A stretch of DNA of 64,000 bases from Candidatus Freyarchaeum deiterrae (GTDB lineage: Archaea; Asgardarchaeota; Jordiarchaeia; Jordiarchaeales; Jordiarchaeaceae). The translations under genes were made by a program, and so were the position numbers. The notes below the pieces were generated by a model that was given only the letters and a program-made list of their open reading frames with translations, was not told the origin of the DNA and made no database searches. Of this stretch, positions 8,504 to 31,013 are shown in pieces. Every line of letters starts with the position of its first letter. Positions within the stretch are counted from its first letter, which is position 1. The stretch is taken from assembly GCA_037305845.1 (NCBI GenBank), contig CP147778.1, positions 320,001 through 384,000 of the forward strand, in the 5' to 3' direction.

Positions 8504-9442
8504 TTGCAAAAATTTTCGAGAGTGAGGAAAGTGATATATGGATTACTAATATTTGACAGAACTGGAAAAAATTTTTTCCAAAAGTTTTATGGTAACATCG
8601 AGGTAGAGGAGAACATCATACGCAGCTTCGTTAAGGAGCTGACAATCCTCATGTACAACCTTAATCAGGTCAATAGAATTTCGTACATAAATCTGGAAAA
8701 GCTGAAATTTTTCTACTCCATTTTTAAAGACATAATCACAGTTTTTTGCACGGATCAAAATGAAGATCTAAGGGACGTCCACGACAAATTCGTCAAAGTG
8801 CAGGAAGAATTTATTAAAATTTTCGACAATCTACCGAGAGAAGAAAATAAACTGGAGGGGGAATCGAAAATTGAGAATAGCCCTCTAAATGTATTTCAAA
8901 AAACTGTGGACAAGATACTTTTCCCCCATCTTAAAACAGTGATAATTGGAGATGGCGGAGTTGGAAAAACTACCATTCTGAAACTTATCATGGGAGAAAA
9001 GACGATTTCCCCTTACCTTCCAACGGTTGGAGTGGATGTTAAAGAGTTTAGTAACGCGGTCAAAAACATGAATCTTATTCTCTGGGACTTCTCAGGTCAA
9101 CCACAGTTCAGAAAACTCTGGAGACCATTTCTCGATGGAACCCACATCGCCATCCTAGTTACGGATTCAACACCTAAAAACATAGAAGAAACAAAAAATA
9201 TATACCAATTAATTAAAGAAGAAAAACCGGAAATGAATTTCATACTAATCGCTAATAAGCAGGACTTACCAGACGCAACCGCACCCGAAACCATCGGAAA
9301 ATACTTGGGAATAACAGCGCACGGATTAGTCGCAATTGACCCAAACTACAGAAAAAAAATACTAGAAATAATCAGAGAAAAAATCACAGAGCTCACCCAA
9401 GTCAAGTCTAAACCATCTCTGCCCATTGACGTTAAGGCGTAA
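8504..9442 (+). CDS. Longin-like domain fused to Ras-superfamily (Arf-like) small GTPase; true start may be GTG at 8531
   Basis: G1 GDGGVGKT, G2 PTVG, G3 WDFSGQ, G4 NKQD; N-terminal ~120 aa with longin-like pattern (IYGLLIFDRTGKNFFQKFY). Confidence 0.85.
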   Translation: MQKFSRVRKVIYGLLIFDRTGKNFFQKFYGNIEVEENIIRSFVKELTILMYNLNQVNRISYINLEKLKFFYSIFKDIITVFCTDQNEDLRDVHDKFVKVQEEFIKIFDNLPREENKLEGESKIENSPLNVFQKTVDKILFPHLKTVIIGDGGVGKTTILKLIMGEKTISPYLPTVGVDVKEFSNAVKNMNLILWDFSGQPQFRKLWRPFLDGTHIAILVTDSTPKNIEETKNIYQLIKEEKPEMNFILIANKQDLPDATAPETIGKYLGITAHGLVAIDPNYRKKILEIIREKITELTQVKSKPSLPIDVKA

Positions 9443-11229: not shown

Positions 11230-12957
11230 TTGGAGAAGAGAATCAGTTGCATTGAGCCTGCGGATAAAGAGCTTTTTACTGGCAGACCTAGTGAGGTTAA
11301 AGAGTTTCAAGACTTTATTTCTGGAGTAAAGGCGGGTTCCGAAGATAAGAGAATTTGGGTAATTACCGGGATACCCGGCATTGGAAAGTCATCCCTGATG
11401 AAGAGGTTTATTCAGATAACTGAGACAGAGGGCCTAGAGGTACTGGTTAGAAATATTTCCGCCTCTGAGGCTAGAATGTTTTTCGATGGTGTGAAAAAAA
11501 CACTTGATAGTTACGCGCCTGAAGCTCGGAAAAAATTCATGGGCGAAAAGAAATACGTACCGGCTCCACCGCTTTCCAAAGAGATGGGGAGCCAGGAGTT
11601 TGAACAATTTTTTAACCAGTTCTTTGAGGATATGGATAAGGTTCAGCAAAAGCTCAGTAAGATTTTAGTGTTTTTCTGTGACAATTTCGAGCGTTTCGGT
11701 TGGTTGGGCTATGAGGCTGCTTACGATTTGTTCAGAAGAATAGCAGCCAGGCTGGGTGAAATGGGATTTAGCGTTTTCTTTATACTCAGTGTGGATAAAA
11801 AGTTTCTCGACTTGTTGGTGGATGATAAAGCGGAATTGTTTCGCGTAGTAGATTTGGATGTCTTCCCGGTGCAGGACGTACGTTTGTTGATTCAGAAATT
11901 TCAGAATGCGACGGGTATGAGGATTGATGATGCTCTTAAGGAGGAGTTAGCCAAAGCCTCAGGAGGTATCCCCTTTAAACTAGCATTATTTATCTGCGGT
12001 TTACTCAAGGAAACCCGTATGGGCGAGGTTCAACCGAGTGTGGAAATCTTTCGAAGAGTGGATAGCAAGATTCAGGATAACGCTCTGAACGCCTTAACCG
12101 ATCTAACCGTGGAGAAGGAGACTCTTGTAGATAAGATTGTTTCACAGAGGTTTAACTTGATTCCTCTAGAGGAACTTGGCTCAGAGGCGGGAGGGAAATC
12201 AAGCGGAAACGCTCTGAACGCTCTTATCGAAGAGGGAATAATAGAGGTTGATAGCTCCTCGGCTTGGCTTAAATCCGACGCGTTTTATGAAATGTTGAGA
12301 CTTCTTATTAACGTGGATCAGGTCTACGGTCGCGCAAGAGCCGTGCTGAAGGTAATCGGAAGAGTAATAGAAGTTAAGAACAGACCGGATCCCATTTACT
12401 TTGAGTGGCTGAGGGACTCTGCAAATATGCTGATCTCACAGGATAAACCCGCCCTAGCTGTAGAGATAGCCACGAATGCTGAGGTTTATGCAAACTCCGC
12501 GTTGGAAAATAAACTTTACTATGAATCCATGCAACTATTCCGCTTAACTGCTAATATCTACGAGAGGACGGGTGACTCTGAGCGTGCCGGAACTATTCTT
12601 GAGAGAGCCGCTAAACTCTTTGAGACTGAGGATAAGAGTTTCTATTCAAGGTCCCTGCTTTCCCGAGCCTCGGATCTTTTTGATGCTTCCAAGGTGGAGT
12701 GGAAAGCACGCTCCATATCTAGGAGCGCGGCTCTAATCTACGAGGAAACCGGAGACAGTTATGATGAGAGGGGGTTCAAAATGTTGGCAAGGGTTTTCTA
12801 CCGCAAAGCCTTTGAACACTATCTAAGGGCAGGGGATAAGGAGAGGATAGAAAGTTTATATGAAAAGGCTATGAACGCTTTTGGCGAGCAGCCAATTTTT
12901 CTAAAAGAGTTTGAGGAGTTAAAGAAAAAAGAAGGAGTAGTGGTTAAGGAGGAATGA
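11230..12957 (+). CDS. STAND-like P-loop ATPase with C-terminal TPR (alpha-SNAP-like) repeats
   Basis: FTGR, Walker A GIPGIGKS, Walker B FFCDNFE, GxP motif SGGIP; helical repeats such as AGTILERAAKLFE, FYRKAFEHY. Confidence 0.75.
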   Translation: MEKRISCIEPADKELFTGRPSEVKEFQDFISGVKAGSEDKRIWVITGIPGIGKSSLMKRFIQITETEGLEVLVRNISASEARMFFDGVKKTLDSYAPEARKKFMGEKKYVPAPPLSKEMGSQEFEQFFNQFFEDMDKVQQKLSKILVFFCDNFERFGWLGYEAAYDLFRRIAARLGEMGFSVFFILSVDKKFLDLLVDDKAELFRVVDLDVFPVQDVRLLIQKFQNATGMRIDDALKEELAKASGGIPFKLALFICGLLKETRMGEVQPSVEIFRRVDSKIQDNALNALTDLTVEKETLVDKIVSQRFNLIPLEELGSEAGGKSSGNALNALIEEGIIEVDSSSAWLKSDAFYEMLRLLINVDQVYGRARAVLKVIGRVIEVKNRPDPIYFEWLRDSANMLISQDKPALAVEIATNAEVYANSALENKLYYESMQLFRLTANIYERTGDSERAGTILERAAKLFETEDKSFYSRSLLSRASDLFDASKVEWKARSISRSAALIYEETGDSYDERGFKMLARVFYRKAFEHYLRAGDKERIESLYEKAMNAFGEQPIFLKEFEELKKKEGVVVKEE

Positions 12958-12964
12958 AAATTCT

Positions 12965-15277
12965 ATGGAAAAAATTCAGCAGAGAATAGCGGAAAGAAAG
13001 GAATCTCTAGTTGAATCAAACAACGCTGTTAAAGACATTGAGACAAAATTTAATGAAACCTTTTCCGCTTTGACAGAACAAATTGGACCTTCTTCAGAAA
13101 AATTGAAAGCAATTTCTAAGCAGTTTCAAACAAGTGAAGATAATCTGAAAAAAAAGTTCGCAGCCTCAATAAAGGGGGCTCAAAACAATATTGCTAACTG
13201 GATGCAGGAGATAGAAACCAGTCTTAAGGAGGAGATTAACACCCAAACCGGCTCGCTCAACCAGGGAATTGACACCATAACGGAGGAGCTGATATCGAAG
13301 CTAACCCAAATTGATTCGAACATTAACGGAAAGATTGAGGAGTCAAATAGCGGTGTTAGCCAGAAAGTCACGGAAACCCAATCAAGTTTAGACACGGAAT
13401 TAAACTCTTTAATTTCCCATATCGATGAATCCTCAGGAGAATTTCTCTCGAAAGCCGAAGAAAACAGAAAGACGCAGGAGGAGCTGTTATCGAATGTTTC
13501 TGAGGAACTAAAAAACCAGGTTCTCTCCAGCACCCAAAACTTTGGAGAATCAGAAAGCGGTTTTCTAAAAGAAAACTATAACGCTTTTACTTCTCAAATT
13601 ACGGATTTTGGTGCACGGACATCTGAAATTTTAGACGGTTATCAAGGTAATCTTGAATCCATGTTTTCGGATGCAAAAAAAGGCGCGGAATCCATAGTCC
13701 TTAAGATGAAAGAGAAGTTGGAAACGCTAGAGTCTGAGACAATAGGCAATTTGGAAAAGGCGTCCACGGAGTACTTGAACAAGGTTTCTGAGAATCACGA
13801 TTCTCTTAAAGGCGGATTGGATCAGAAATTGGGAGAGGCTACTTCCATTATAGAGGCAGCGAAGGAGGCGCTAAAGGCCGAAGTAAATAACTTAGCGGAG
13901 ACAAAACTAAAAGAAATAGAAGAGATTAGCAACCAAACGAGAGAAAAGCTTGACGAAGTTTCGGGTTTAAAGGAGAGAGATTTCTCGAAGAATGTGGAGG
14001 ATCTGCTTTCCGGCTTCTCTTCACAGCTTGTCGGTCAGCTTGAGAGGCTAGAAGGGAGTATGCAATCTCTGCAGGAGCAGGTAAGCGGAGATCTTTCAAG
14101 TGCTCTGGAACAGATTTCCAAATTGGTGACTTCAATTAACACTAATATCAATGCGATGTTTGTTTCGGAGTTGAAGGAGGTTCAATCCGTTCTTCAAAGT
14201 TATGAGGAGCAATACACGGAGCTGGTAAGTGGTTCTGTAAAATCTTTCTACGATGACGCCTCGGTCTTAAAGTCGGATTTCGATTCGAGATTAATGGAAA
14301 CCAGACAAGAGTTCAGCAAGTCGATGGAGACTTTGGTGGCCAAACTTTCAGAGTCTTTGGAGAATTATGTTGAGAAGAGCAAGACGGTAAAAGAGAGCAT
14401 CACAAATGATGTCTCGAATGTGCTGGATTCCAATAAAGCTTTACTCGAGTCTCAAAACGAGGAATTCAAAAGCAATGCATCCCAAGCTATAAAAAGCGCT
14501 ACTGAATCGTTTGGTGAAATGGGGGAGAGTTCGTCGTCAAGCCTAAGTGTTGGCGCAGACGAGACCATGCAAAAAATTACTGAAGAACTCACAAAGTCAA
14601 AGGACACCATCACTCAAATTATTGAAGAAAATAATGCCAAAACCGGAGAAGCCCAAGCGGCTTTCGAACAGAAACTGCAAGAACTGAACCAAAACCTAGG
14701 AACAAGTGTTGAAAACCTGGTGAAAGAATTCCAAGCTAAATGGGCTGAAGGCATCAGTGAAAACTCGTCAGCCAATACGGGAACTGTTGAAAACTTAAAG
14801 ACCTCATTAAAGGATACTATTTCGAACAGCATAAACAACCTGAAAGAAGAATTAGAGCGAACCAAGACGGTTATGGCTGAAACCACAAGCCAAGAAACCT
14901 CATCCATAAAAGAGCTTGTACAGAAAATGACTGAGACATCGGAGCAAAGCCTCGCCTCTGTTAAAACGAGTGTGAAAGAGAATCTAGATGGTACGGTTTC
15001 GGGTATTTCGACGCGACTTTCAGACCTAGGCACGAATACTGGTAATGAATTATCTGAAGTGGAAGAGGAGACTTTGAAAGAGTTGGGGAGCGGGATAGAT
15101 GAAATACAGGAAACCGTAAAAAATCTTATTAGCAGTTTCTCCGAGATTGACGGCGAAGTTAAAAGAAGTGGCGGGGGTGTCTCTAAAAACATTGCAAATC
15201 TATTGAAAACTTTGGGAGAAGCCTACAAGAGCCTCGAGGCTGCCGAAAAAGAAATCTCAAGTATAGGGGGTAGATAA
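12965..15277 (+). CDS. 770-aa acidic all-helical hendecad coiled-coil protein, function unknown
   Basis: No TM, one Pro; hydrophobic residues spaced 4-4-3; operonic spacing of 7 nt and 1 nt to neighbours. Confidence 0.8.
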   Translation: MEKIQQRIAERKESLVESNNAVKDIETKFNETFSALTEQIGPSSEKLKAISKQFQTSEDNLKKKFAASIKGAQNNIANWMQEIETSLKEEINTQTGSLNQGIDTITEELISKLTQIDSNINGKIEESNSGVSQKVTETQSSLDTELNSLISHIDESSGEFLSKAEENRKTQEELLSNVSEELKNQVLSSTQNFGESESGFLKENYNAFTSQITDFGARTSEILDGYQGNLESMFSDAKKGAESIVLKMKEKLETLESETIGNLEKASTEYLNKVSENHDSLKGGLDQKLGEATSIIEAAKEALKAEVNNLAETKLKEIEEISNQTREKLDEVSGLKERDFSKNVEDLLSGFSSQLVGQLERLEGSMQSLQEQVSGDLSSALEQISKLVTSINTNINAMFVSELKEVQSVLQSYEEQYTELVSGSVKSFYDDASVLKSDFDSRLMETRQEFSKSMETLVAKLSESLENYVEKSKTVKESITNDVSNVLDSNKALLESQNEEFKSNASQAIKSATESFGEMGESSSSSLSVGADETMQKITEELTKSKDTITQIIEENNAKTGEAQAAFEQKLQELNQNLGTSVENLVKEFQAKWAEGISENSSANTGTVENLKTSLKDTISNSINNLKEELERTKTVMAETTSQETSSIKELVQKMTETSEQSLASVKTSVKENLDGTVSGISTRLSDLGTNTGNELSEVEEETLKELGSGIDEIQETVKNLISSFSEIDGEVKRSGGGVSKNIANLLKTLGEAYKSLEAAEKEISSIGGR

Positions 15278-15278
15278 A

Positions 15279-18200
15279 ATGTCTTCATGGGAAGAAACTC
15301 TAAAGGAAATAGGAATAACGGGCGAACAGGCTCAGGTTTACGCTGTCTGTGTTGGGCTGGGAGCGAAAACGGCATCAGAATTGGCTGTTTACACAGGACT
15401 ATCTATTCCAGCTGTTTCAGAGGAACTTGAAAAATTGCAGACAATGGGTGTGATCAAAAAAATACCGGGCAAAATAGATTTCTATATTGCTTTGACACCC
15501 AGGATAGCCCTCACTGGAATGGTTGCTGACACTCTACAAAAAAAACTTGAAAATTTGAAAAGCAACATCATGACGAGTACAAATAACGCGATTGATAGCC
15601 TAAATCAAAGCGTTGCCACACTCAAAAGTAAACTAAATGAAGGCTTGTCAAACTATCTGGGGGAGGTTAAAGAGGGCAGTTCCCAGATAGTAGCTCAGCT
15701 TCTCGGCTCAACCAGCGAATCTGTGGAGAATTTTAAATCCGAAGCGAATCAACAATCCCAGAGCGTTGAGGGGTACCTGCAGCAAATGCTTAACCTTCAT
15801 GAGAAGGACTCCAAGGAAACCATAAAAAATCTAGTTGAAGCGAGTACCGAGTCGGTGAGTACGTTCCGGAGTGACATACAGGAAGTAAAAGACACCTCTG
15901 AGAGTGTGCTGAAAGATTTCATTGAACAGACGCGAATCTCCATAACTGATTTTCAGGAAAAGTTGGAAGCTGCTGTGAATGATGCTGTTAAAACAATAGA
16001 ATCAAGAGCCGAGGATGTGTCGGGTAGAGCGATTTCTGAAGTTACTTCGCTTTTCTCGGATCTCGACTACGCTTTTGACCAGTCGGTAAAAGAAATTAAT
16101 GAGATTGACCTGCAGCCACTGGCAACCATTAATGAGAATGCCATAGAGATTTCCAAGACTGCCATATCGGGCATGTCGGAACTCATGGATGAATTGGGAC
16201 CTCTAACCGAGACTCAAATCACAAATATTCAGAGTATGAAAGAAGCATTTTTGAAGGACTTTAATAAAACTCTTGAAGCTAATCGAAAAAAACTAGTCGG
16301 TTTTATGGACGAGATTGAGGGAGCTCTTGATACTCAAACTATAAAGATTAGAGATTTAATACTTGAAAATCTCACGCGTTTACAAACAGAGACCTCCCAA
16401 GTAATGGAGAGGTACACGGAAAAAATAACTGAAGTTGGTGAAACCTCAAAAAACGCGATTGAGCAGGTGAAGATAAACCTAAGCATCCAGGAAGAATTAA
16501 ACACGCAGGAAAACCAGTTGAAAACATCTTTGGAGGAAGAGGTTCAAAAAGCGGAAAGCGAACTGAAAACGAAACTAGCAGAAATAGATGAGGAAAGCAA
16601 CTCCCTAAAGCAGAGAATAGGGAGCATAAAAGATAAAGCTATTCAAGATTCTAGAAACAGCTTGGGGTCACTTCTTAAAAAAATAAACAAAGCGATGAAG
16701 AAACATTTAGATGACTTTGTATCCAGCTTCAATTCCGAATCTTTAACTCTTAAAAGAAATCTATCCGCTAATTTTAACGACAGCGTCGCCGTCCAAAAAA
16801 GCAAAATGACCAGTTTTGAAGAAACCTTCACAACAGCGCTAAACAAGATGCTAGACATTATTCAGTTCATTGAAGACAAGTCCGGCGATAAGAAAAAACT
16901 TTCACTGGGAAAAGAGGAAACAGAAGAACTCCTAAACAAAGTTACCTCCAGCAAAAATGAAATCACGGAATTGAAAAAGGAACTGAGAAACTCTGTAAAT
17001 GACCTTAATGAAAACATCAATAAGGTGTCCACAATCATTCTCGACGCACTCGACAAAAGCTTAACATACATCGGTGAATCCTTCGCAAAAAAAACCGAAA
17101 AACTCGTCCAATCAATACAGGAAGAAGATACCAAATCAAAGGAAATCGCCAGTAAAGTAAAAGAGAGCCCCGTTAAAACAAAAGAAAGTGCTGTTAAGGG
17201 CACCGGAGACATAGGAGAAAGTGCGATAGTCTCCGAAATAACAAGCTTCAAGACCATAAATGAAAAAAGCTTGATTACGTTCCACTCGGAGGTTGAGACA
17301 CAAATCGATAAGCAACTCCCCGAGATGGAGAAGATTATAACCGACGCCGTCGGCCAAGTTACAAGCACCAAGGACAGTTGCTTAACAGTATTCGGGTCTA
17401 TTAAAAGCGGAATCGTTGAACAAATAGACAAATCCTCAGAAATTTTAGAAAGTTCCAGGAGCTTGCTTGAAGAAAGTTTAGAAAGCATCAAACAAACACT
17501 GGAAAACACGAGCACAGATACACAGAACATTGTCACTCCGATAAAGGAGAGTGTCAGCAGCCAGACTTTACAACAGTTCGCCGAGGAAAAAACTTCGCTT
17601 GAGGAAAACCTGGAATCGGAAATAAAAGAATCTTATAACGATACTAGACAGAGACTGGAAGACTTTCAATCCAGCGTGAAAGAGAACCTAAACGGCTACT
17701 TAGATAAAGCCAACAAATTAAGAGCAACAGCAGATAAAAACGTGTACTCAAACATTAATAAAGAATTCAAAGATTTAACAAAACAACTCGAGGAACAAAA
17801 AGAAAAACTAGAGGAGACTCTAACCAAAAGCAAAGATGAGATAGAAGAAAAACACAGCAAAGTGCAAAAGGGAGCGGAAGAGGTAACTTCAACCCTTGGG
17901 CGAGACCTACCCAGCTATGTGGAGAAAATAAAATACGACCTACTTTCCACCATGGATAGGCATAGCAGGGAGAGCAGAGACTCTGCGGAAGTCAAACTGG
18001 ACAGCCTTGCCGCTATCACAGACAAGCCCTTCTCAAACATAGAAAGCAAACTCCTAGACTTCGATAGAAAATTGGGCTTGTTATTCGAAAAACGCCACTC
18101 CGAACTCAAATCCAAAACCTACGAAGCCCTCGAAAGCCTAAAAGACAGCCACAATGCATTCGAAGAAAGCTTGAACAGCCTATACTCAAGCATGGAACAG

Positions 18201-18809
18201 ACGCTAAACCAAAAAGTAGAAGAAACAGTCTCAAAGCATCAAGAAGACACCAGCAATACCATAAACACCACCACCACAAGTATTGAGGAAAATGAGACGG
18301 GTTCAATTCAGGCTCTAAACACGTTCACGGGGGAAATCCCGGAGAGAATAGGTGATGCCATAACCAGTACTCAGGACACTCTAAAACTCATAACCCAAAT
18401 AATGAAACTATCCGAAGAAATAGAACCCAAACCCTTCGAAGACACCGAGAGAGTGGTCGGAAGAGAACAAATACTAAACCTGCTAAAAACATTTATTAAA
18501 AACACAAAGAGCACCATAACCATCCTCACCCCTACCGTAGATGACATACCCATAGATGATCTGAAACAGATACCAAGGCAGAGAGTAACAGTAATCACGG
18601 ACGCCGAGGGAAAAGCCCCACCGATGCCTGGCCACGTCCAGCTCAAACACAACCCTGGAAACGTATACGCCTTCAACCGGGACAGTGAAGAAATGATACT
18701 AGCAGTAGCCACACCGGAACCACTGGGAATATACACCATAAACATGGAGCTAATCAAACTACTAAACCAGATATTACAAGATGTGTCCGCAAGAGCTAAA
18801 AAAATATAG
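15279..18809 (+). CDS. TrmB-like wHTH protein with very long coiled-coil insert and C-terminal TrmB/PLD-like domain
   Basis: N-term LKEIGITGEQAQVY...TASELAVYTGLS...LQTMGVI; C-term VVGREQILNLL..IKNTKSTITILTP...RDSEEMIL. Confidence 0.75.
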   Translation: MSSWEETLKEIGITGEQAQVYAVCVGLGAKTASELAVYTGLSIPAVSEELEKLQTMGVIKKIPGKIDFYIALTPRIALTGMVADTLQKKLENLKSNIMTSTNNAIDSLNQSVATLKSKLNEGLSNYLGEVKEGSSQIVAQLLGSTSESVENFKSEANQQSQSVEGYLQQMLNLHEKDSKETIKNLVEASTESVSTFRSDIQEVKDTSESVLKDFIEQTRISITDFQEKLEAAVNDAVKTIESRAEDVSGRAISEVTSLFSDLDYAFDQSVKEINEIDLQPLATINENAIEISKTAISGMSELMDELGPLTETQITNIQSMKEAFLKDFNKTLEANRKKLVGFMDEIEGALDTQTIKIRDLILENLTRLQTETSQVMERYTEKITEVGETSKNAIEQVKINLSIQEELNTQENQLKTSLEEEVQKAESELKTKLAEIDEESNSLKQRIGSIKDKAIQDSRNSLGSLLKKINKAMKKHLDDFVSSFNSESLTLKRNLSANFNDSVAVQKSKMTSFEETFTTALNKMLDIIQFIEDKSGDKKKLSLGKEETEELLNKVTSSKNEITELKKELRNSVNDLNENINKVSTIILDALDKSLTYIGESFAKKTEKLVQSIQEEDTKSKEIASKVKESPVKTKESAVKGTGDIGESAIVSEITSFKTINEKSLITFHSEVETQIDKQLPEMEKIITDAVGQVTSTKDSCLTVFGSIKSGIVEQIDKSSEILESSRSLLEESLESIKQTLENTSTDTQNIVTPIKESVSSQTLQQFAEEKTSLEENLESEIKESYNDTRQRLEDFQSSVKENLNGYLDKANKLRATADKNVYSNINKEFKDLTKQLEEQKEKLEETLTKSKDEIEEKHSKVQKGAEEVTSTLGRDLPSYVEKIKYDLLSTMDRHSRESRDSAEVKLDSLAAITDKPFSNIESKLLDFDRKLGLLFEKRHSELKSKTYEALESLKDSHNAFEESLNSLYSSMEQTLNQKVEETVSKHQEDTSNTINTTTTSIEENETGSIQALNTFTGEIPERIGDAITSTQDTLKLITQIMKLSEEIEPKPFEDTERVVGREQILNLLKTFIKNTKSTITILTPTVDDIPIDDLKQIPRQRVTVITDAEGKAPPMPGHVQLKHNPGNVYAFNRDSEEMILAVATPEPLGIYTINMELIKLLNQILQDVSARAKKI

Positions 18810-20302: not shown

Positions 20303-20758
20303 TCAGATCTTGGTCGAAATGCTTTTACCGAACTCCTCAGCTTTGGCAAGTTCACCTTCAACAAGTGGACCCTTCGAAAACCCCTTGATTTGCGTTGTTA
20401 AACCCGGAGCAACCAGTTTTAGCCCTGGAATTTTTCCTCGAATCTGTTTCTCCATTTTTTGAACAGCTCTGAGGTCATTTCTCGCGTGTGTGTCGAAAAC
20501 AGCGCCTGCTTTTCCTTTCAAATCAAGCTTTTCTAACTTTTTCAGGAAATTCTTGATGTCTCCCACCGGTCCTCCCCCGTTATTTGGGGAACCAATAATT
20601 AACGCATCATATTCTAAAGCTTCTTCGGGTTTAGTTTCCTTAACGTCCTTGACTGCAGCCTCTGCCTTTTTCGTTGTATTAATACCCTTGGCTATTGCCT
20701 CTGCTACTGCTTTGGTGTTCCCGTACCTGCTCCAATAAACTACCAATGCTTTTGGCAA
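20303..20758 (-). CDS. Flavodoxin, copy 1
   Basis: YWSRYGNT FMN phosphate loop, IIGSP, AVFDT. Confidence 0.9.
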   Translation of the reverse strand: MPKALVVYWSRYGNTKAVAEAIAKGINTTKKAEAAVKDVKETKPEEALEYDALIIGSPNNGGGPVGDIKNFLKKLEKLDLKGKAGAVFDTHARNDLRAVQKMEKQIRGKIPGLKLVAPGLTTQIKGFSKGPLVEGELAKAEEFGKSISTKI

Positions 20759-21032
20759 AATATCAAACGCTCCACCAATAATTTTCTGATACTATTTTAT
20801 TTAACCTATTTTGTAATTATCCGCTCCTTAAACCAGAAGATTAAATGTATTTTATTGTTTAATGGGTGCATGAAATATTAATTTTTATTCGTTGACAGTG
20901 ACCAGCCAAACAATCGAAATTATAAAAAAAATAGGTTATAGGGAGTTACTACTTAGATTGTAATGAACTCCAATGAAACTCTTTTGGGAAATAGCTCATC
21001 ACGATTTATTCGCTTAACAGTTTTATTTATTT

Positions 21033-21497
21033 TCAGATCTTGGCCGAAATGCTTTTACCGAACTCTTCAGCTTTGGCAAGTTCTCCTTCAACAAGTGGAC
21101 CCTTCATAATTCCCTTGGCCTCTCCTCCAAAACCCGGAGCCACCAGTTTTAAACCCGGAATTTTTCCCCGAATCTGTCTCTCCATTTTTTGAATAGCTCT
21201 AAGATTACTTTGTCCCGGACCACTGTGTGTGTCGAAAACAGCGCCTTTTTTTCCTTTCAGATTAAGCTTTTCTAATTTTTTCAGGAAATTCTTGATGTCT
21301 CCAACCGGTCCTCCACCGTGGTTTGCAGAACCAATAATTAGCGCATCGTAGTCTAAAACCTCTTCGGGTTTAGTAATCTTAACGTCCTTGACTACAGCCT
21401 CTGCCTTTTTCGTTGCATTAATACCCTTGGCTATTGCTTCTGCTACTGCTTTGGTGTTTCCCGTCTTGCTCCAATAAACTACCAATGCTTTTGGCAA
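21033..21497 (-). CDS. Flavodoxin, copy 2
   Basis: YWSKTGNT, IIGSA, AVFDT. Confidence 0.9.
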   Translation of the reverse strand: MPKALVVYWSKTGNTKAVAEAIAKGINATKKAEAVVKDVKITKPEEVLDYDALIIGSANHGGGPVGDIKNFLKKLEKLNLKGKKGAVFDTHSGPGQSNLRAIQKMERQIRGKIPGLKLVAPGFGGEAKGIMKGPLVEGELAKAEEFGKSISAKI

Positions 21498-21765
21498 AAT
21501 ATCAAACGCTCCTTCAATAACTTTCTGCTACTATTACACAATTTTGTGATTACCCTCTCCCTAAATTAGGAGATTAAACTTATTTTATTATTTTATAGGT
21601 ACATGAAATATTAATATTTATTCTTTGGCAGTGACCAGCTAAACAATCAAAAATATCAAAAAAATATGTTATAGGGAGTTACTGCTTGAATTGTAGTGAA
21701 CTCCAATGAAACTCTTTTGGGAAATAGCCCATCACGATTTATTCGCTTAACCGTGTTATTTATTT

Positions 21766-22221
21766 TCAGATCTTGGTCGAAATGCTTTTTCCGAACTCCT
21801 CAGCTTTCGCAAGTTCACTCTCAGCAATTGGACCCTGCATTCCCTCAACCTGCAATGCTAAGCTTGGGGCAACTAGTTTTAGGCCTGAAATTTTTTCCTG
21901 TATCTGTTTCTCCATTTTTTGCCCGACTTTAAGGTCGTTTTTATTATGTGTATCAAAAACGGCGCATGCTTTTCCTTTCAAATTAAGCTTTTCTAATTTT
22001 TTCAGGAAATTCTTGATGTCTCCAACCGGTCCTCCCATGTGATTTGCCGAACCAATAATTAACGCATCGTAGTCTAAAACCTCTTCTGGTTTAGTATCTT
22101 TAACATTCTTTACTACTACCTCTACCTTTTTTGCTGCCTTTATTATCCCTTTGGCTATTGAATCTGCCACTTTTTTGGTGTTTCCGTACCTACTCCAATA
22201 GACAATTAAAACTTTTGACAA
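21766..22221 (-). CDS. Flavodoxin, copy 3 (start moved to TTG at 22221 by alignment with paralogs)
   Basis: YWSRYGNT; paralogs begin at the equivalent TTG. Confidence 0.88.
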   Translation of the reverse strand: MSKVLIVYWSRYGNTKKVADSIAKGIIKAAKKVEVVVKNVKDTKPEEVLDYDALIIGSANHMGGPVGDIKNFLKKLEKLNLKGKACAVFDTHNKNDLKVGQKMEKQIQEKISGLKLVAPSLALQVEGMQGPIAESELAKAEEFGKSISTKI

Positions 22222-22399
22222 AATCACATCACTCCCCAAATAGACTTTTAGTATCTTCTTATTCAATCGTACAAATATCTTTTACTCTAATCTAAGCGCA
22301 AGATTAAATATCTTTAGGAAACAAGGAATAATGGAAGTATGGAAGAACTTACCTAAGATTTTCTCACTCTCAAGAATAATTCACTCTCCGTGTTTTAGG

Positions 22400-25940: not shown

Positions 25941-28900
25941 CTAAACAATGTCTAGCTGGCTCAATTTCTTCTCGCAACTCGGGCAGGTTCCCTTTATCTT
26001 GATCCATTCTAATAGGTGGTCTTTGTGGCTCAGGGCTCCGCAGCATGGACACTTGACCAACTGGTCTCCTGAGACAATGTTTATCTGGCACACTGGGCAC
26101 CTGAGTCTGGCTCCTCCGCAGTTGGGGCAATACTTTTCGTCCCCCTGAATCTCGGTTCCGCAGAACATGCAGCACCGCTGCCCAATGTCAGGTGTAGGTG
26201 AGGTGATTACTCCCAGCTTTTTCTCAACGGTAGCAAGTTTGGCGCTGTATTTCTGGTATATTTCCCGGTACTCGTCGGGGGTGAGTTTTCCGGCTTCGAA
26301 CCGGGTGTTTATCTCCGCCATCAGGTCCTTGAGAGCCGCCCTTCTAGATTCGAGGTCTTGAGCCAGACGCTTGGCTTTGGCTGGCTTTACACGCTTTGCA
26401 GCGGTTACTGTCTGTGCTTCACTCTGAGGCGTTGTCCTCCTGATTTTGAGAATTATCTTCTGTTCTGAGGCTTTTTCTTCTCTTGTGGGAGAGATTTGGG
26501 TCCCTGTATAGCTGGCTGGTCTCTGAGGAGCAGTCTCTGGATATCTGGTTGGGGCTTCCGTCTCGGTAATCTGTTCTTCTTCCCTTCTTCCTCTCCGCAA
26601 TCCCAATGTGGCAACCGTGACCCCTGCGACCGCGACCAAGCCTAGAGTCAGGTAAATCAGAGGATTTAGGCCGCTGGGTGTATTCAAGAAAAGTATTAGT
26701 AATGGGATATACGGATACCACACTGGTGTTCCGAGTATGGCAAAGTAGGTTAAATGGTTAGTATACCCAGTTATTGTGTTGTTCTGGATGTCTACGGTGC
26801 TTGGGAGCTGGATCCAGTTTCCTGAGGTTTCGTTCCAGTACCATATTGCTAGGGAGTTTTCTTTCAGGTTGTTTCCTGTGACTTCTTGGTCAGTGTAGTG
26901 TATTGTTATATTGATTCCCTGAATTGCGGTTGTGTTATCTACCTCGATAGAAACAAATCTTCCCAAAAAGTTCAAGCCGAAGGGCGTATTTCCCTTCAGG
27001 TTATCTATGATTTTTATAATGCTCAAGTTAACTGGATTTGTTAGATTTATAGTGAGTTCTACCCCCATTTGTACCGAGACATTCACAAGTTTATTTATAC
27101 CAGCACCAATACTGGTAGTGATTGAAGAGTCTACTTTTTCCACAACAAAAGTTTCCTTATGAGATGAACTCATGTAGACTGTTCTTTTGTTGTCCGTAAT
27201 ATTTAGCCCAAAGAAACTAGCAGTCACTCTGGCCGCATTATATATCGGGGTCCCACCAACATAGGTTTGATATGGTACAATAAACCAGTCGGTTAATCCA
27301 CTTTGGTTTGTTGTGGAGTTGCTGCCGCCAAATTCAGGAGAGGCGTAAACTACGTTTCCATCAACCTCTACCTTAACGTCCGCACCCTGTACAGGATTCT
27401 CGTTTTTGTCCAGAACCTCAATACAGAGATAATTTGCTACAACACTTCCCGTGAAATCAATATATAAGTTACTACCATCCAGATTGAAACCGTATCTGTT
27501 GTTCACAAGAGTGTTATCTGTAAGAGTATTGTTGTTTGATTTCCATTCTAGGAAGAAACCGGCGGCGCCGTTGTTGTTTGCAGTGTTACACGAAAGAGTG
27601 TTGTTTGAGCTTTGGGACAGGAAGAAGCCGTCTCCGTTGTTGTTTGCGGTATTGTTTGAGAGAGTATTGTTGGAGCTGTCGTACATGTAGAAGCCATCGC
27701 CGTTGTTGATGGCGAAATTGCTCATAAGTTTGCTATACGTGCTGCGAAATATATCGAATCCATAGTTGTTGTTGCTTGCTGTGTTACCCGTAAGAGTGTT
27801 GTTGTAGGTGTTGTATATGTTGAAGCCGTCCCAGACGTTGTTGGTTGCGGTGTTGCCTGAGATATTGTTGTTATTGGAACCGAACCAGAGATATAAGCCG
27901 TACATGTTGTTGTATGAAATCGTATTATTAATGAGTTGGTTGTTGGAACTGGAGTCGAGGAAGAATCCGTCGTTACTGTTGTTTGTGACGTTGTTGTTTC
28001 TTATTATATTGTAGTAAGCATTCCAGAGCAATATTCCATAGTAGTTGTTTGAGAAGGTGTTGTTTTCGATTACCGCGTTGTCGGTGTTTATGCAGGGACC
28101 GCAATCCTCTTTGTTTGGCCAGTTGCTGTATCCGCAGTAGTGTATTTCGCTGTTGTTCATCTGGAATGTTGCTCCGGGTTGCACCCAGAATACGAAGTTA
28201 TGCGCATTATCTTTATTGTAGGCTGTGATTACTGTGGCGTCATTTGTGGTGAGAGGGTTACCGTCACTATCATTGATGTACAATGCTCCCCCGCTCTTAA
28301 CTTCTATGCCGTGTTCGCCGTTGGTGGAGCAGTTGACAAATAAGGTGACGCTGGTTAGTGTCAGGCTTCCCCCGCCAGCTATTGTAAGGTTTCCATTTAG
28401 TATAATTTGAGTGTTTGAAATGTTCTGTGAATCACTTATTGTGGTATCTCCCCATATAGTGGGGGTAGCGGTGAAGTTTTCAATATGAGAAGATGATATG
28501 TCAACAATTCTAGGGTTGTTGAGAAAGCTCATTATTTTGAATTTCACGGTTACAACCGTTGTGTTCCCCACCCAGGCTCCACTGGTAAAGGTTTGATAGG
28601 GAACAATGATCAAGTCGGTTAATCCGTTTTGGTCTGTTGAGGAATTAATTCCACCAAATCCGGGGGAGGCGTAAAGCGGGTTCCCGTCAACCTCTACCTT
28701 AACATCCGCACCCTGCACAGCACCACCGTCGTAGCCCAGTACCTTAACGCTGAGATAATTTGACACAATACTGCCTGTGAGATCATTGCCTGAACTGCCA
28801 GCTTCAAGATAGAAACCGTATGCGTTGTTTACGGCAGCGTTTCCCGTAATAGTATTGTTCAAGCAGGAGAATAGGTAGAAGCCGTAGGTGCTGTTTGTGG

Positions 28901-31013
28901 CGGTGTTACTCGAAAGAGTATTGTTATTGGAGCTGGAGGATAGGTAGAAGCCGTAGTAGTTGTTGTTTGTGACGGTGTTACTTGTAAGATTGTTGTTTGA
29001 GCTGGAGGATAGACCGAAGCCTAAATAATAGTTGAGGTTTGCGGTGTTACTCGAAAGAGTATTATTCGAGCTGGAGGATAGGAAGAAACCGTCCCAGCCG
29101 TTGTGGTATGCGGTGTTACTCGAAAGAGTATTGTTGTTCGAGTAGTGGTTAAGGTCGAAGCCGTTGCCTCTCCAGCCGAAAGCCCCGTTGTCGTTTGCGG
29201 TATTACCCAAGAGAATATTGTTGTTCGAGTAGTGGTCTAGGTCGAAGCCCCAATAGTTGTATTTTGCGGTATTACTTGTAAGAGTGTTATTTGAGCTGGA
29301 GTTTAGGTAGAAGCCGTATTGGGTGTTGTTGTTTGCGGTGTTACCCAAGAGAGTATTATTCGAGCTGGAGGATAGGCTGAAGCCGTCGTTAATATTGTTG
29401 TTTACGGTGTTACCCAAGAGAGTATTGTTGTATGCAGAGTATAATGTGATTCCAACATAGTTGTTTGTGAATGTGTTGTTCTCTATGACTGCGTTGTTGG
29501 TGCTTATCCAGAGACCATAATAGTCATAGTTACTGGTCGTGTAATTGTATCCGCAGTATTGCAGTTCGCTGTTGTTCATCTGGAATGTTGCTCCGGGTTG
29601 CACCCGAAATAGGAAGTTATGCGTGTTGTCTGGATTATAGGCAGTGATGTTTGTGGCGTCGTTTATAGTATTAGGGTTTCCGTCGCTGTCATTTATGTAT
29701 AGTGCTCCTCCACTCTGAACCTCTATGCCGTGTTCACCGTTAGTGGTGCAGTTGACCATTAAGGTATCATTGGTTAGTGTCAGGCTTCCCCCACTAGCGA
29801 TTGTTAGGTTTCCGTTCAGAATTATGGCTTTGCTGTAAATTATTTGAGTATCGGTGATAATGGTATCGTTCCAGATTTCTTCTTCGCTTCCCCAGGCTCC
29901 CTGGATTGGTTCGGGGTCACATAAATTTCTTACAAAGCACCAATCAACTGTTACACTTGTATTAGTACCTCTTGCCCCAAAATTTATACCCAAATTATCT
30001 TTAGGTGCTTGGCCAGGCATCCAAGCTGTTAAAATGTCGTTTTCGAAGAATTGGACGTCATTTTTCCAAATTATCTTTAAAATATGGTAAGAGCTTAAAT
30101 CTGTTCTTCGGACTACCATGCCAGCACTGTCGTCTGTCCATACTTGATAATAATCTAGCGCAAACTCGGCAATATCAAACCCGAAACCCGAGTAACCACC
30201 ACCTGTTGCGCTTCTTTCATCCGCAGCTATCTGCCACGCATTTTGTCCACCGGCTTGTCCGTATGCTTTAGCTCTGAAATAAAAAGCTCTCGGCTTGCTG
30301 AATTGGACTCTAGCGCCGATGGATTCAAAATCGAGACCTCCATTGCCCAAAATTGTTAACTCGGTTCCAGACTCGGAATACGCACCGCCTGTTTTCCCTA
30401 TATTCCATTTGTTCGTGTCCAAAATATTGTCATCAAAGTGATCAAAGAATGGAAAAGTGTTAGTCCCATTACTAGTTGTTGTGGCATCGTTTTTCCCATA
30501 ATAAACGTAAATAGTAGTATTGTTAGGTGCAACGGGGATAGAATCTACTTGGACCCAGAAGGTCGCGTTGTCACCGTCGTACTCGCTCTCCATCCAGTAG
30601 TTCAGTTGGCTGGTTCCATCCGAGTTTGTGAACCTTATGTCGCCGAAGTCTGTTCTGCAGTTAGCCTTACAATAAATGTTCTCGGCGTTGTCGCTGCCGC
30701 TGCTGTAGTGTACCACTATCATCGTCTGGTAATTGGTCTGGGCACCCGCAGTACTTCCACTTAATGTGTGGCTTTTGCAGTATTCCCATCCCGACAGCCA
30801 AAAAGCTTTTGCATTAATATTATTGTTATTTTGGGGGTTGTTTAAAAATAGGGTTTGAAAGTAATTTGTATTTGTAGTTTGGTAAGAGAGGAATACGGGT
30901 ATGCATATTGAAATGGTGAAAAGTGAAATCGCCATTAATGCGATGAATGCACGTTTATGATTATTTAAACGGTTTTTTAGGCTTGGTATTTTCACCCGCC
31001 TCATTTCTCCCAT
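25941..31013 (-). CDS. Large membrane-anchored surface glycoprotein: DUF2341-like domain, PbH1/NosD beta-helix blocks, TM, cytoplasmic zinc ribbon and RING-like finger
   Basis: N-terminal hydrophobic segment; DFGDIRFT...IYVYYG; NNTLSSNTANNN..GF.L repeats; TM followed by RRGRR; CPVC-x12-CPCC-x4-H-x2-H-LLEW-x6-CPSC. Confidence 0.85.
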   Translation of the reverse strand: MGEMRRVKIPSLKNRLNNHKRAFIALMAISLFTISICIPVFLSYQTTNTNYFQTLFLNNPQNNNNINAKAFWLSGWEYCKSHTLSGSTAGAQTNYQTMIVVHYSSGSDNAENIYCKANCRTDFGDIRFTNSDGTSQLNYWMESEYDGDNATFWVQVDSIPVAPNNTTIYVYYGKNDATTTSNGTNTFPFFDHFDDNILDTNKWNIGKTGGAYSESGTELTILGNGGLDFESIGARVQFSKPRAFYFRAKAYGQAGGQNAWQIAADERSATGGGYSGFGFDIAEFALDYYQVWTDDSAGMVVRRTDLSSYHILKIIWKNDVQFFENDILTAWMPGQAPKDNLGINFGARGTNTSVTVDWCFVRNLCDPEPIQGAWGSEEEIWNDTIITDTQIIYSKAIILNGNLTIASGGSLTLTNDTLMVNCTTNGEHGIEVQSGGALYINDSDGNPNTINDATNITAYNPDNTHNFLFRVQPGATFQMNNSELQYCGYNYTTSNYDYYGLWISTNNAVIENNTFTNNYVGITLYSAYNNTLLGNTVNNNINDGFSLSSSSNNTLLGNTANNNTQYGFYLNSSSNNTLTSNTAKYNYWGFDLDHYSNNNILLGNTANDNGAFGWRGNGFDLNHYSNNNTLSSNTAYHNGWDGFFLSSSSNNTLSSNTANLNYYLGFGLSSSSNNNLTSNTVTNNNYYGFYLSSSSNNNTLSSNTATNSTYGFYLFSCLNNTITGNAAVNNAYGFYLEAGSSGNDLTGSIVSNYLSVKVLGYDGGAVQGADVKVEVDGNPLYASPGFGGINSSTDQNGLTDLIIVPYQTFTSGAWVGNTTVVTVKFKIMSFLNNPRIVDISSSHIENFTATPTIWGDTTISDSQNISNTQIILNGNLTIAGGGSLTLTSVTLFVNCSTNGEHGIEVKSGGALYINDSDGNPLTTNDATVITAYNKDNAHNFVFWVQPGATFQMNNSEIHYCGYSNWPNKEDCGPCINTDNAVIENNTFSNNYYGILLWNAYYNIIRNNNVTNNSNDGFFLDSSSNNQLINNTISYNNMYGLYLWFGSNNNNISGNTATNNVWDGFNIYNTYNNTLTGNTASNNNYGFDIFRSTYSKLMSNFAINNGDGFYMYDSSNNTLSNNTANNNGDGFFLSQSSNNTLSCNTANNNGAAGFFLEWKSNNNTLTDNTLVNNRYGFNLDGSNLYIDFTGSVVANYLCIEVLDKNENPVQGADVKVEVDGNVVYASPEFGGSNSTTNQSGLTDWFIVPYQTYVGGTPIYNAARVTASFFGLNITDNKRTVYMSSSHKETFVVEKVDSSITTSIGAGINKLVNVSVQMGVELTINLTNPVNLSIIKIIDNLKGNTPFGLNFLGRFVSIEVDNTTAIQGINITIHYTDQEVTGNNLKENSLAIWYWNETSGNWIQLPSTVDIQNNTITGYTNHLTYFAILGTPVWYPYIPLLILFLNTPSGLNPLIYLTLGLVAVAGVTVATLGLRRGRREEEQITETEAPTRYPETAPQRPASYTGTQISPTREEKASEQKIILKIRRTTPQSEAQTVTAAKRVKPAKAKRLAQDLESRRAALKDLMAEINTRFEAGKLTPDEYREIYQKYSAKLATVEKKLGVITSPTPDIGQRCCMFCGTEIQGDEKYCPNCGGARLRCPVCQINIVSGDQLVKCPCCGALSHKDHLLEWIKIKGTCPSCEKKLSQLDIV

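Follow-up and report, generated by a model that had tools for sequence, protein, structure and literature searches.

Organization of the operon

The DNA analysed here (the window) is a stretch of 64,000 nt, bases 320001–384000 of the single-contig 3.58 Mb genome of the Asgard archaeon Candidatus Freyarchaeum deiterrae. It carries on the + strand a three-gene operon, in which open reading frames (ORFs) of 575, 770 and 1176 aa (genes 1, 2 and 3) are separated by gaps of 7 and 1 nt, as the initial annotation of this DNA had proposed. The comparisons presented below indicate that the three genes form an Asgard module of a predicted ATPase and two probable long rods; the arrangement is beyond chance, the ATPase with a helical rod gene beside it recurring at all 20 loci fetched. 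The genes are as follows.

11230–12957, + strand: gene 1, 575 aa, TTG start; predicted STAND-type P-loop NTPase with a winged helix–turn–helix (wHTH) and a tetratricopeptide repeat (TPR)-like solenoid
12965–15277, + strand: gene 2, 770 aa; 70 unbroken hendecads (11-residue repeats), acidic, one proline
15279–18809, + strand: gene 3, 1176 aa; TrmBL2-like protein in which some 950 aa of hendecad rod separate the wHTH from the C-terminal domain

A Shine–Dalgarno-like AAGGAGG lies upstream of gene 2 and GGGGG upstream of gene 3; an AT-rich TATA-like sequence is found 5′ of gene 1 and oligo-T runs 3′ of gene 3. The GC content of the operon equals that of the remaining window and is typical of the genome, and the flanking genes are housekeeping genes. 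As claimed initially, none of the three proteins contains a hydrophobic stretch of transmembrane (TM) grade, the maximum Kyte–Doolittle mean over 19 residues being 1.41. The set, which had initially not been recognized as a named system, maps onto none, and a full-text literature search found no published account of this operon or of TrmB proteins that bear rods. Close homologues carry the labels Jordarchaeia or Freyarchaeota, the operon DNA is present in wetland and freshwater-sediment metagenomes, and a sequencing-run search listed no RNA datasets carrying it.

Conservation and inheritance of the module

The synteny sample comprised 20 loci from 12 GTDB families. At every one a proline-poor helical ORF lies directly after the ATPase gene, in line with the co-conservation that the initial interpretation required of the three genes; at 18 loci this ORF is a gene 2 of 425–773 aa and at the other two, which are Hel-type, it is a rod protein of 1110–1123 aa. 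A protein of the gene 3 family (1110–1812 aa) is held by 16 loci, two of them without gene 2; at 13 of the 16, gene 2 is followed by a gene 3 of 1126–1812 aa (one cut by a contig end), and at locus L030 the gene 3 relative is detached, as it also is at locus L053 (4938–9554, G258:C1; 1538 aa), both loci being of genus g33. Named Heimdall, Hermod and Hel contigs show the same layouts. No other neighbouring genes recur across the sampled families, only these three; in g33, methyltransferase and NUDIX genes come after the ATPase–rod pair.

Maximum-likelihood trees were built for gene 1 and for the end domains of gene 3; each family forms a single clade in both, and the deep groupings (f1 and f2 with f16; f14 with f5) are common to the two. 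Because the two trees agree and the families are monophyletic, this co-divergence of genes 1 and 3 indicates long vertical co-inheritance and not mobility. About half of the sampled Asgard families inherit the three genes together.

Our genome censuses covered genomes of the Asgard phylum (301 for the gene 1 query and 400 for a profile of its TPR domain). The gene 1 query matched 78 of the 301, nearly always with one full-length copy, and the TPR-domain profile gave a strong full-length match (E ≤ 1e-19, ORF of 550–650 aa), mostly single-copy, in about 83 of the 400. By family, the ATPase was found in the following numbers of genomes.

f1, 5/5; f5 (which includes Ca. Heimdallarchaeum endolithica), 31/31; f14, 11/12; f16, 5/5
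f25, 3/3; f30, 3/3; f21, 10/22; f9, 1/135
f7, 0/76; f12, 0/19; f23, 0/14

The sole strong gene 1 match among the 135 genomes of family f9 (G365:C11:70430–71026, E 2.7e-53) may stem from a transfer or a binning error, or may be a relic. When 1.84 billion representatives were searched with HMMER, about 30 full-length gene 1 clusters at 50% identity (555–631 aa) emerged, below which there is a sharp drop to ATPases of about 380 aa that match PF01637 without the TPR part. The named members of these clusters, annotated merely as ATPase or hypothetical protein, are all Asgard (Jord/Frey, Loki, Hel, Hermod, Heimdall, Wukong and 'Promethearchaeota'), and the module, judged from these matches, is Asgard-restricted among named members; a homologue search with alignment A3 recovered close Jordarchaeia relatives only.

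The two-gene Hel-type version, in which the ATPase is followed directly by a rod protein of 1110–1138 aa, is represented by L029 4917–8249, L035 8423–11794 and L057 10862–14278. Its ATPase is 622–636 aa long with an extra TPR-like insert, and a separate gene 2 is absent from the loci.

Gene 1, a predicted STAND-type ATPase

An alignment of 17 gene 1 homologues (19–72% identity) shows an N-terminal F-x-G-R motif and a wHTH-like stretch at aa ~285–345 in which N309 is invariant, in addition to the following features.

11368–11391, + strand: Walker A, GIPGIGKS, aa 47–54
11662–11691, + strand: Walker B region, aa 145–154, with D151 nearly invariant
11959–11988, + strand: STAND GxP motif, SGGIPFKLAL, aa 244–253, whose Pro–aromatic pair most of the 17 homologues retain
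12352–12933, + strand: C-terminal TPR-like alpha-solenoid, aa 375–568, with ten helices in the AlphaFold2 (AF2) model

The window protein scores just below the Pfam cut-offs for AAA_16 (30.8 against 32.6 bits), ATPase_2 (PF01637; 28.4 against 33.2) and nSTAND1 (22.3 against 27.1), while PF01637, PF13191 and PF20703 are among the precomputed matches of its orthologues and the C-terminal third gives TPR and SNAP Pfam matches. On the strength of Walker A and B, the GxP motif, the wHTH after the NTPase and the C-terminal repeat sensor, we class gene 1 as a predicted STAND-type NTPase. Like other STAND NTPases (PF01637, AAA_16, nSTAND1; MalT, Avs), it combines the Walker motifs, F-x-G-R and GxP with a wHTH and a C-terminal TPR solenoid; it differs from them in that no effector domain was found in it, and in forming the compact family of about 30 clusters described above. 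The first description of gene 1, a STAND-type ATPase with Walker A/B, GxP and helical repeats, and no effector, holds.

The same description had called the TPRs SNAP-like. The AF2 model of the solenoid, built from a 27-sequence alignment, is a ten-helix TPR-like structure with a predicted local distance difference test (pLDDT) of 95.5. When the solenoid profile was compared with the PDB, alpha-SNAP/Sec17 came out best (E 1.9e-4, 24 bits), and PF14938 is the Pfam family matched by most solenoid members (14 of 27 at E ≤ 0.1, the best at 1.2e-6, all sub-threshold), the window solenoid itself scoring 19.9 bits, below the cut-off of 25. Foldseek placed the kinesin light chain (KLC) TPR first (8e-5) and alpha-SNAP at 2.7e-4, with TM-scores of 0.35–0.5, and VIA gave Z ~12 for Sec17, gamma-SNAP and alpha-SNAP, tied with LGN, HAP40 and KLC. 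Since the sequence matches are sub-threshold and the structure ties with generic TPR solenoids, 'SNAP-like' is a weak lead and not a membership: the TPR part of the description stands (AF2, Foldseek), the SNAP part only as that lead.

As in alpha-SNAP/Sec17 with NSF, a TPR-like solenoid is paired in gene 1 with a P-loop ATPase, here by fusion, and the neighbouring genes encode long helical-bundle proteins, which may be likened to the alpha-SNAP/NSF setting. No match indicates, however, a ring unfoldase of the Cdc48/NSF type, and the operon rods are not SNAREs, having neither a TM anchor nor the heptad SNARE motif. A 2026 preprint on Heimdall SNAREs leaves the disassembling ATPase open and names no SNAP homologue.

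Elsewhere in the genome a stand-alone ORF of ~149 aa (G000:C1:2558922–2559272, − strand) aligns with the central portion of the gene 1 TPR profile (E 1.6e-10), and ORFs of 138–151 aa do likewise in all five other genomes of the genus; by its sequence this ORF may be a free mini-solenoid paralogue of gene 1.

Gene 2, a probable rod of unbroken hendecads

The hydrophobic pattern of gene 2 gives a single sharp spectral peak at 11/3 (z about 75–100 against shuffles) over all 770 aa, with no heptad (3.5) signal, and its phase holds steady between residues ~30 and ~720. Set out 11 residues to a row, the sequence amounts to exactly 70 hendecads, with positions 10, 3 and 6 strongly and positions 2 and 7 partly hydrophobic; the resulting stripe is narrow, of the a-d-e-h type, and rich in L, I, V and F. 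The net charge is −56 and there is a single proline. A pure helical rod of 770 aa had been called here, and the unbroken periodicity agrees; the coiled coils named in that description have to be corrected, as both rods of the operon are hendecad and not ordinary heptad coiled coils.

All 18 gene 2 homologues share the 11/3 peak (z 22–110). Because the peak persists in divergent homologues (eight aligned to the window protein range from 13 to 57% identity), the register is under selection and is no relic of recent duplication. None of the seven proteins that were phase-tracked has a midpoint register break, and because of this uninterrupted midpoint we read gene 2 as, most likely, one continuous helix of ~114 nm (770 × 0.148 nm). 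Its best-conserved part also has the strongest hendecad signal.

13955–14254, + strand: best-conserved part of gene 2, aa 331–430

In families f1, f2 and f16, gene 2 measures 767–773 aa regardless of how long gene 3 is, and a gene 2 of 770 aa accompanies gene 3 arms of ~450–550 aa in the 1176-aa and 1340-aa forms; a general length match between gene 2 and the gene 3 arm was rejected, as it applies to some lineages only (773 versus ~790 aa in the 1812-aa forms). No terminal peptide of gene 2 that might serve as a TPR ligand is conserved across families. The ESM Atlas offers a model of gene 2 too poor to use (pLDDT 0.37), whose neighbours belong to other 11-mer families.

Several database matches were traced to periodicity and rejected, namely Apolipoprotein, ApoLp-III, Baculo_PEP_C and MAP65 in Pfam, and ZorA, LmuB, LeoB and JetC in PADLOC and NCBIfam; for Apolipoprotein, ApoLp-III, ZorA and LmuB, the non-helical parts that define those families are all missing. 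An identity of gene 2 with apolipoproteins A1/A4/E, which are secreted and have proline-punctuated 22-mer class-A amphipathic helices with a wide hydrophobic face, does not hold, given one proline in 770 aa, no signal peptide and a narrow stripe of three to five positions, nor does an identity of genes 2 and 3 with Zorya ZorA, of which only the profile tails are covered and no MotA/ExbB-like TM domain is present. Tetrabrachion, the ZorA tail, the apolipoproteins and ApoLp-III all share the 11/3 hydrophobic periodicity with the operon rods, but the rods have no MotA-like TM domain, signal peptide or proline punctuation, so that the likeness is one of periodicity and composition.

Gene 3, a TrmBL2-like protein with a proposed fold-back arm

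Gene 3 is divided as follows.

15300–15500, + strand: TrmB-type wHTH, aa 8–74 (PF01978, 36.7 bits against a cut-off of 25.6)
15531–16880, + strand: proposed ascending arm, aa 85–534, with the N-side variable-length site at ~aa 340–450
16881–16928, + strand: proposed apex, aa 535–550, SGDKKKLSLGKEETEE, with a register break ~20 aa from the rod midpoint
16929–18368, + strand: proposed descending arm, aa 551–1030, with the C-side variable-length site at ~aa 705–750
18369–18806, + strand: C-terminal TrmBL2/TrmB-type phospholipase D (PLD)-like domain, aa 1031–1176, without the HKD histidine (AF2, Foldseek)

In an alignment of 13 homologues the C-domain (~146 aa) has invariant K, P, R, D, E and E residues and no conserved His. 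HMMER comparisons of it with the PDB and Pfam, by sequence and by profile, gave nothing significant, and PF11495 matches two of the 13 members (E 0.008). Foldseek of its AF2 model (pLDDT 84) returned TrmBL2 first (5bpi, 5bpd, 5bqt; E 5e-8 to 1e-7) and TrmB next (3qph, 2f5t), the TrmBL2/TrmB matches overall spanning E 5e-8 to 5e-7, followed by the PLD-family nucleases NucT and Nuc; the assignment to TrmB/TrmBL2, as a non-catalytic domain, is thus by fold only. Only the C-domain is better conserved in gene 3 than the wHTH, which shows 81% identity inside the genus and 34–59% across families. Because the wHTH passes the Pfam TrmB threshold and the C-domain fold matches TrmBL2 first, gene 3 has the TrmBL2 plan of wHTH, helix and PLD-like domain without a sugar-binding subdomain, consistent with the wHTH–rod–TrmB/PLD-like order called initially.

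TrmBL2 is an abundant, sequence-unspecific chromosomal protein of Thermococcales, which forms thick nucleoprotein filaments on DNA and represses transcription (PMC8707338). Like gene 3, TrmBL2 (TK0471/PF0496; 5bpd, 5bpi, 5bqt, 5box) has an N-terminal TrmB-type wHTH and a PLD-like C-domain that lacks both the catalytic HKD and the second, sugar-binding subdomain. The two differ in that TrmBL2 has ~264 aa and a linker helix of ~30 residues, whereas the gene 3 linker measures ~950 aa (up to ~1580 aa in orthologues), is hendecad, is proposed to fold back, and is coupled to an ATPase and a second rod.

The gene 3 rod is hendecad too (z 23 overall), with register breaks near aa 375–405 and 518–540 and a weakly periodic Pro/Gly loop at aa 606–650; its net charge is −53. 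The block at aa ~452–605, around the proposed apex, is the best-conserved part of the rod. Jordarchaeia orthologues fall into three lengths (1168–1176, 1339–1340 and 1812 aa), and an ungapped diagonal scan splits the length differences near-equally between two sites ~300–440 aa apart, in the Heimdallarchaeaceae likewise.

1339 versus 1812 aa: N-side +231, C-side +241
1176 versus 1812 aa: N-side +334, C-side +315
1176 versus 1339 aa: N-side +103, C-side +74
Heimdallarchaeaceae L037 versus L034: N-side +117, C-side +108
Heimdallarchaeaceae L037 versus L031: N-side +84, C-side +91

For 12 of 14 gene 3 homologues from seven families, the midpoint of the rod has a register break no more than ~20 aa away, and in the other two the site orthologous to the window break (aa 538) is itself at the midpoint (641 versus 639; 872 versus 876). 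With four to six breaks per rod, a break so near the midpoint is expected by chance in about one protein in six. Because of these two independent lines, the paired, near-equal length changes (five comparisons, from two classes) and the midpoint break, we argue that the two halves pair antiparallel, and that the rod is most likely a fold-back, SMC-arm-like hairpin of ~65 nm (~450 aa per strand) and not an extended rod of 140 nm; in the 1812-aa orthologues the arm would most likely reach ~115 nm. The length changes and the midpoint break would also be accounted for by two extended chains that pair antiparallel as a dimer. By analogy with TrmBL2, such an arm would most likely keep the wHTH and the C-domain side by side at one end, so the 'rod ending in a DNA-binding head' of the initial annotation gives way to a probable fold-back arm with both globular domains at its base. 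A complex prediction between the N-arm (aa 1–260) and the C-arm plus C-domain (aa 845–1176) scored 0.08 against a mark of 0.32, had no controls, and is used neither way.

The proposed arm recalls SMC, Rad50 and MukB, which have intramolecular antiparallel coiled-coil arms whose strands co-vary in length, a conserved tip and globular ends joined at the base. Unlike them, gene 3 has neither an ABC ATPase head nor a kleisin, its termini are a wHTH and a PLD-like domain, its repeats are hendecads where those of SMC are heptads, and the ATPase is here a separate, STAND-type protein.

Three further rod proteins of the gene 3 type, each with the C-domain and a hendecad rod, are encoded elsewhere in the genome.

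G000:C1:1173381–1177301 (L050 7381–11301): 1306 aa, detectable TrmB wHTH
G000:C1:1064805–1067066 (L051 6805–9066): 753 aa, detectable TrmB wHTH
G000:C1:1276121–1277740 (L052 6121–7740): 539 aa, no detectable TrmB wHTH

Other genes in the window

Upstream of the operon, 8504–9442 (+ strand) encodes a 312-aa protein with a small-GTPase domain (G1–G4 motifs) after an N-terminal region of ~120 aa, taken on first reading for a longin–GTPase fusion; at the position of this gene a contig of the same genus has a KaiC/GvpD-like ATPase on the other strand. Downstream, 20303–22266 (− strand) holds three tandem flavodoxin-like paralogues of 151, 154 and 166 aa with near-identical scaffolds, of which the same-genus contig L059 has two copies, and 25941–31013 (− strand) encodes a 1690-aa protein with two N-rich beta-helix-type repeat blocks and a TM segment close to its C-terminal end; the tail, rich in Cys, is zinc-ribbon/RING-like.

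Discussion

Considering these data together, we tentatively favour, at a confidence somewhat short of even, the explanation that the module, inherited vertically and restricted to Asgards, builds a scaffold of long rods that is anchored to DNA and controlled by the ATPase. Gene 3 would bind DNA through its TrmBL2-like base and project an acidic fold-back arm with a conserved tip, the short linker helix of TrmBL2 having been expanded into the antiparallel hendecad arm. Gene 2 shares the rare 11/3 geometry and the strong negative charge with the gene 3 rod, and probably forms bundles, either on its own or together with gene 3 arms; candidate docking sites are the conserved tip of gene 3 and the centre of gene 2. 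Gene 1 may act as the nucleotide switch, with the TPR solenoid as its likely grip on helical bundles; its nucleotide-dependent oligomerization would then assemble, cluster or release the rods. The cellular role would be nucleoid organization or tethering. Of the initial interpretation, the gene and domain calls, the co-conservation and the absence of a named counterpart hold; the rods prove to be hendecad, both globular domains of gene 3 most likely lie at one end of the arm, and SNAP-likeness remains weak.

A number of observations weigh against this explanation. Both rods are strongly acidic (net −56 and −53), so that only the wHTH base could touch DNA, and since the Hel-type rod protein (L029, L035) has the TrmB-type C-domain and no detectable wHTH, DNA anchoring may not extend to every version. 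Walker A is degenerate in roughly one in four of the 50%-identity cluster representatives of the gene 1 family, with Arg in place of the lysine or no match to the motif, so that hydrolysis may be dispensable. Roughly half of the sampled Asgard families, the two largest (1/135 and 0/76) among them, yielded no ATPase, and in genus g33 it is present in only 10 of 22 species, the gene 3 relative of that genus lying, where located, ~8 kb off on the other strand. Finally, all three gene 3 paralogues in the window genome are without an adjacent ATPase, because of which the rod-bearing TrmB form is better seen as a small Asgard family, one member of which is coupled to genes 1 and 2.

We think it unlikely that the operon is instead a transcription-regulatory module, with gene 3 as a TrmB-type repressor or activator whose arm senses or oligomerizes and gene 1 as a MalT-like co-regulator acting through its own wHTH and TPR sensor. 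The TrmB family consists mostly of regulators, the gene 3 wHTH scores above the Pfam TrmB cut-off, and gene 1 has the STAND plan of NTPase, wHTH and TPR sensor; a regulator has no need, however, for a rod of 950–1600 aa with length-matched arms, nor for a second rod gene of 770 aa, the gene 3 C-domain lacks the sugar-binding subdomain and matches TrmBL2 best, and with only the three genes recurring there are no conserved target genes beside the operon.

A membrane- or lipid-associated scaffold, in which the 11-residue repeats would act as amphipathic helices of the apolipoprotein or perilipin kind, for example in shaping protrusions or in tethering DNA to the membrane, we likewise consider improbable. 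Gene 2 scores 98.4 bits on Pfam Apolipoprotein (PF01442; cut-off 90) over five stretches and matches ApoLp-III too, and an 11/3 periodicity is a hallmark of lipid-surface helices. Yet the narrow gene 2 stripe, with three strong and two partial positions per 11, is a coiled-coil core pattern; the net charge of −56 and the absence of proline punctuation, signal peptide and TM segment speak against lipid binding; and the length-matched gene 3 arms favour helix–helix pairing.

Slightly less probable still is a cytoskeletal filament or molecular ruler unrelated to DNA, with the wHTH as a vestige or a protein-binding module. The Hel-type version without a detectable wHTH and the acidity of the rods would suit it, and gene 2, held at 767–773 aa across three families, behaves as expected of a ruler, but the wHTH is, after the C-domain, the very part of gene 3 that is best conserved. 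Least probable, and in our view very unlikely, is an anti-virus or conflict system in which an invader would trigger the STAND sensor (as in Avs) with the rods as effector or scaffold: the STAND–TPR sensor plan and the PADLOC and NCBIfam matches (ZorA tail, LmuB, PDC-S39) point that way, but those matches reflect periodicity, cover helical and TPR stretches alone and include neither a MotA-like nor a nuclease domain; the operon encodes no effector of the nuclease, protease, NADase or pore kind; the ATPase occurs as one copy, follows family lines and has a tree that agrees with that of gene 3; and the flanks are housekeeping genes of genome-typical GC, with one possible transfer only (G365).

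Returning to the DNA-anchored scaffold, a more specific and quite improbable form of it would be an Asgard-specific nucleoid skeleton, in which TrmBL2-type bases bound to DNA carry fold-back arms of 65–115 nm and the 114-nm rods cross-link these into a lattice that the STAND ATPase, with its SNAP-related solenoid, assembles and dismantles. If true, the module would parallel in function, without shared descent, the long coiled-coil tethers of eukaryotic chromatin and the eukaryotic machines that take bundles apart.

Among known prokaryotes, Asgard archaea are the nearest relatives of eukaryotes, and the organization of their DNA and cytoplasm is largely unknown. Cultured Asgards have reported cell diameters of a few hundred nanometres, so that rods of 65–115 nm on DNA, co-encoded with a switch ATPase, would span a sizeable fraction of the cell diameter. 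Whatever the function, gene 3 is a natural case of a small DNA-binding protein turned into a giant and most likely fold-back rod, and its length classes of 1176, 1339 and 1812 aa are ready material on how arm length matters. If the rods do form a DNA-anchored scaffold, the module would be a new prokaryotic chromosome-organizing machine, built on a transcription-factor fold in place of an SMC ATPase.

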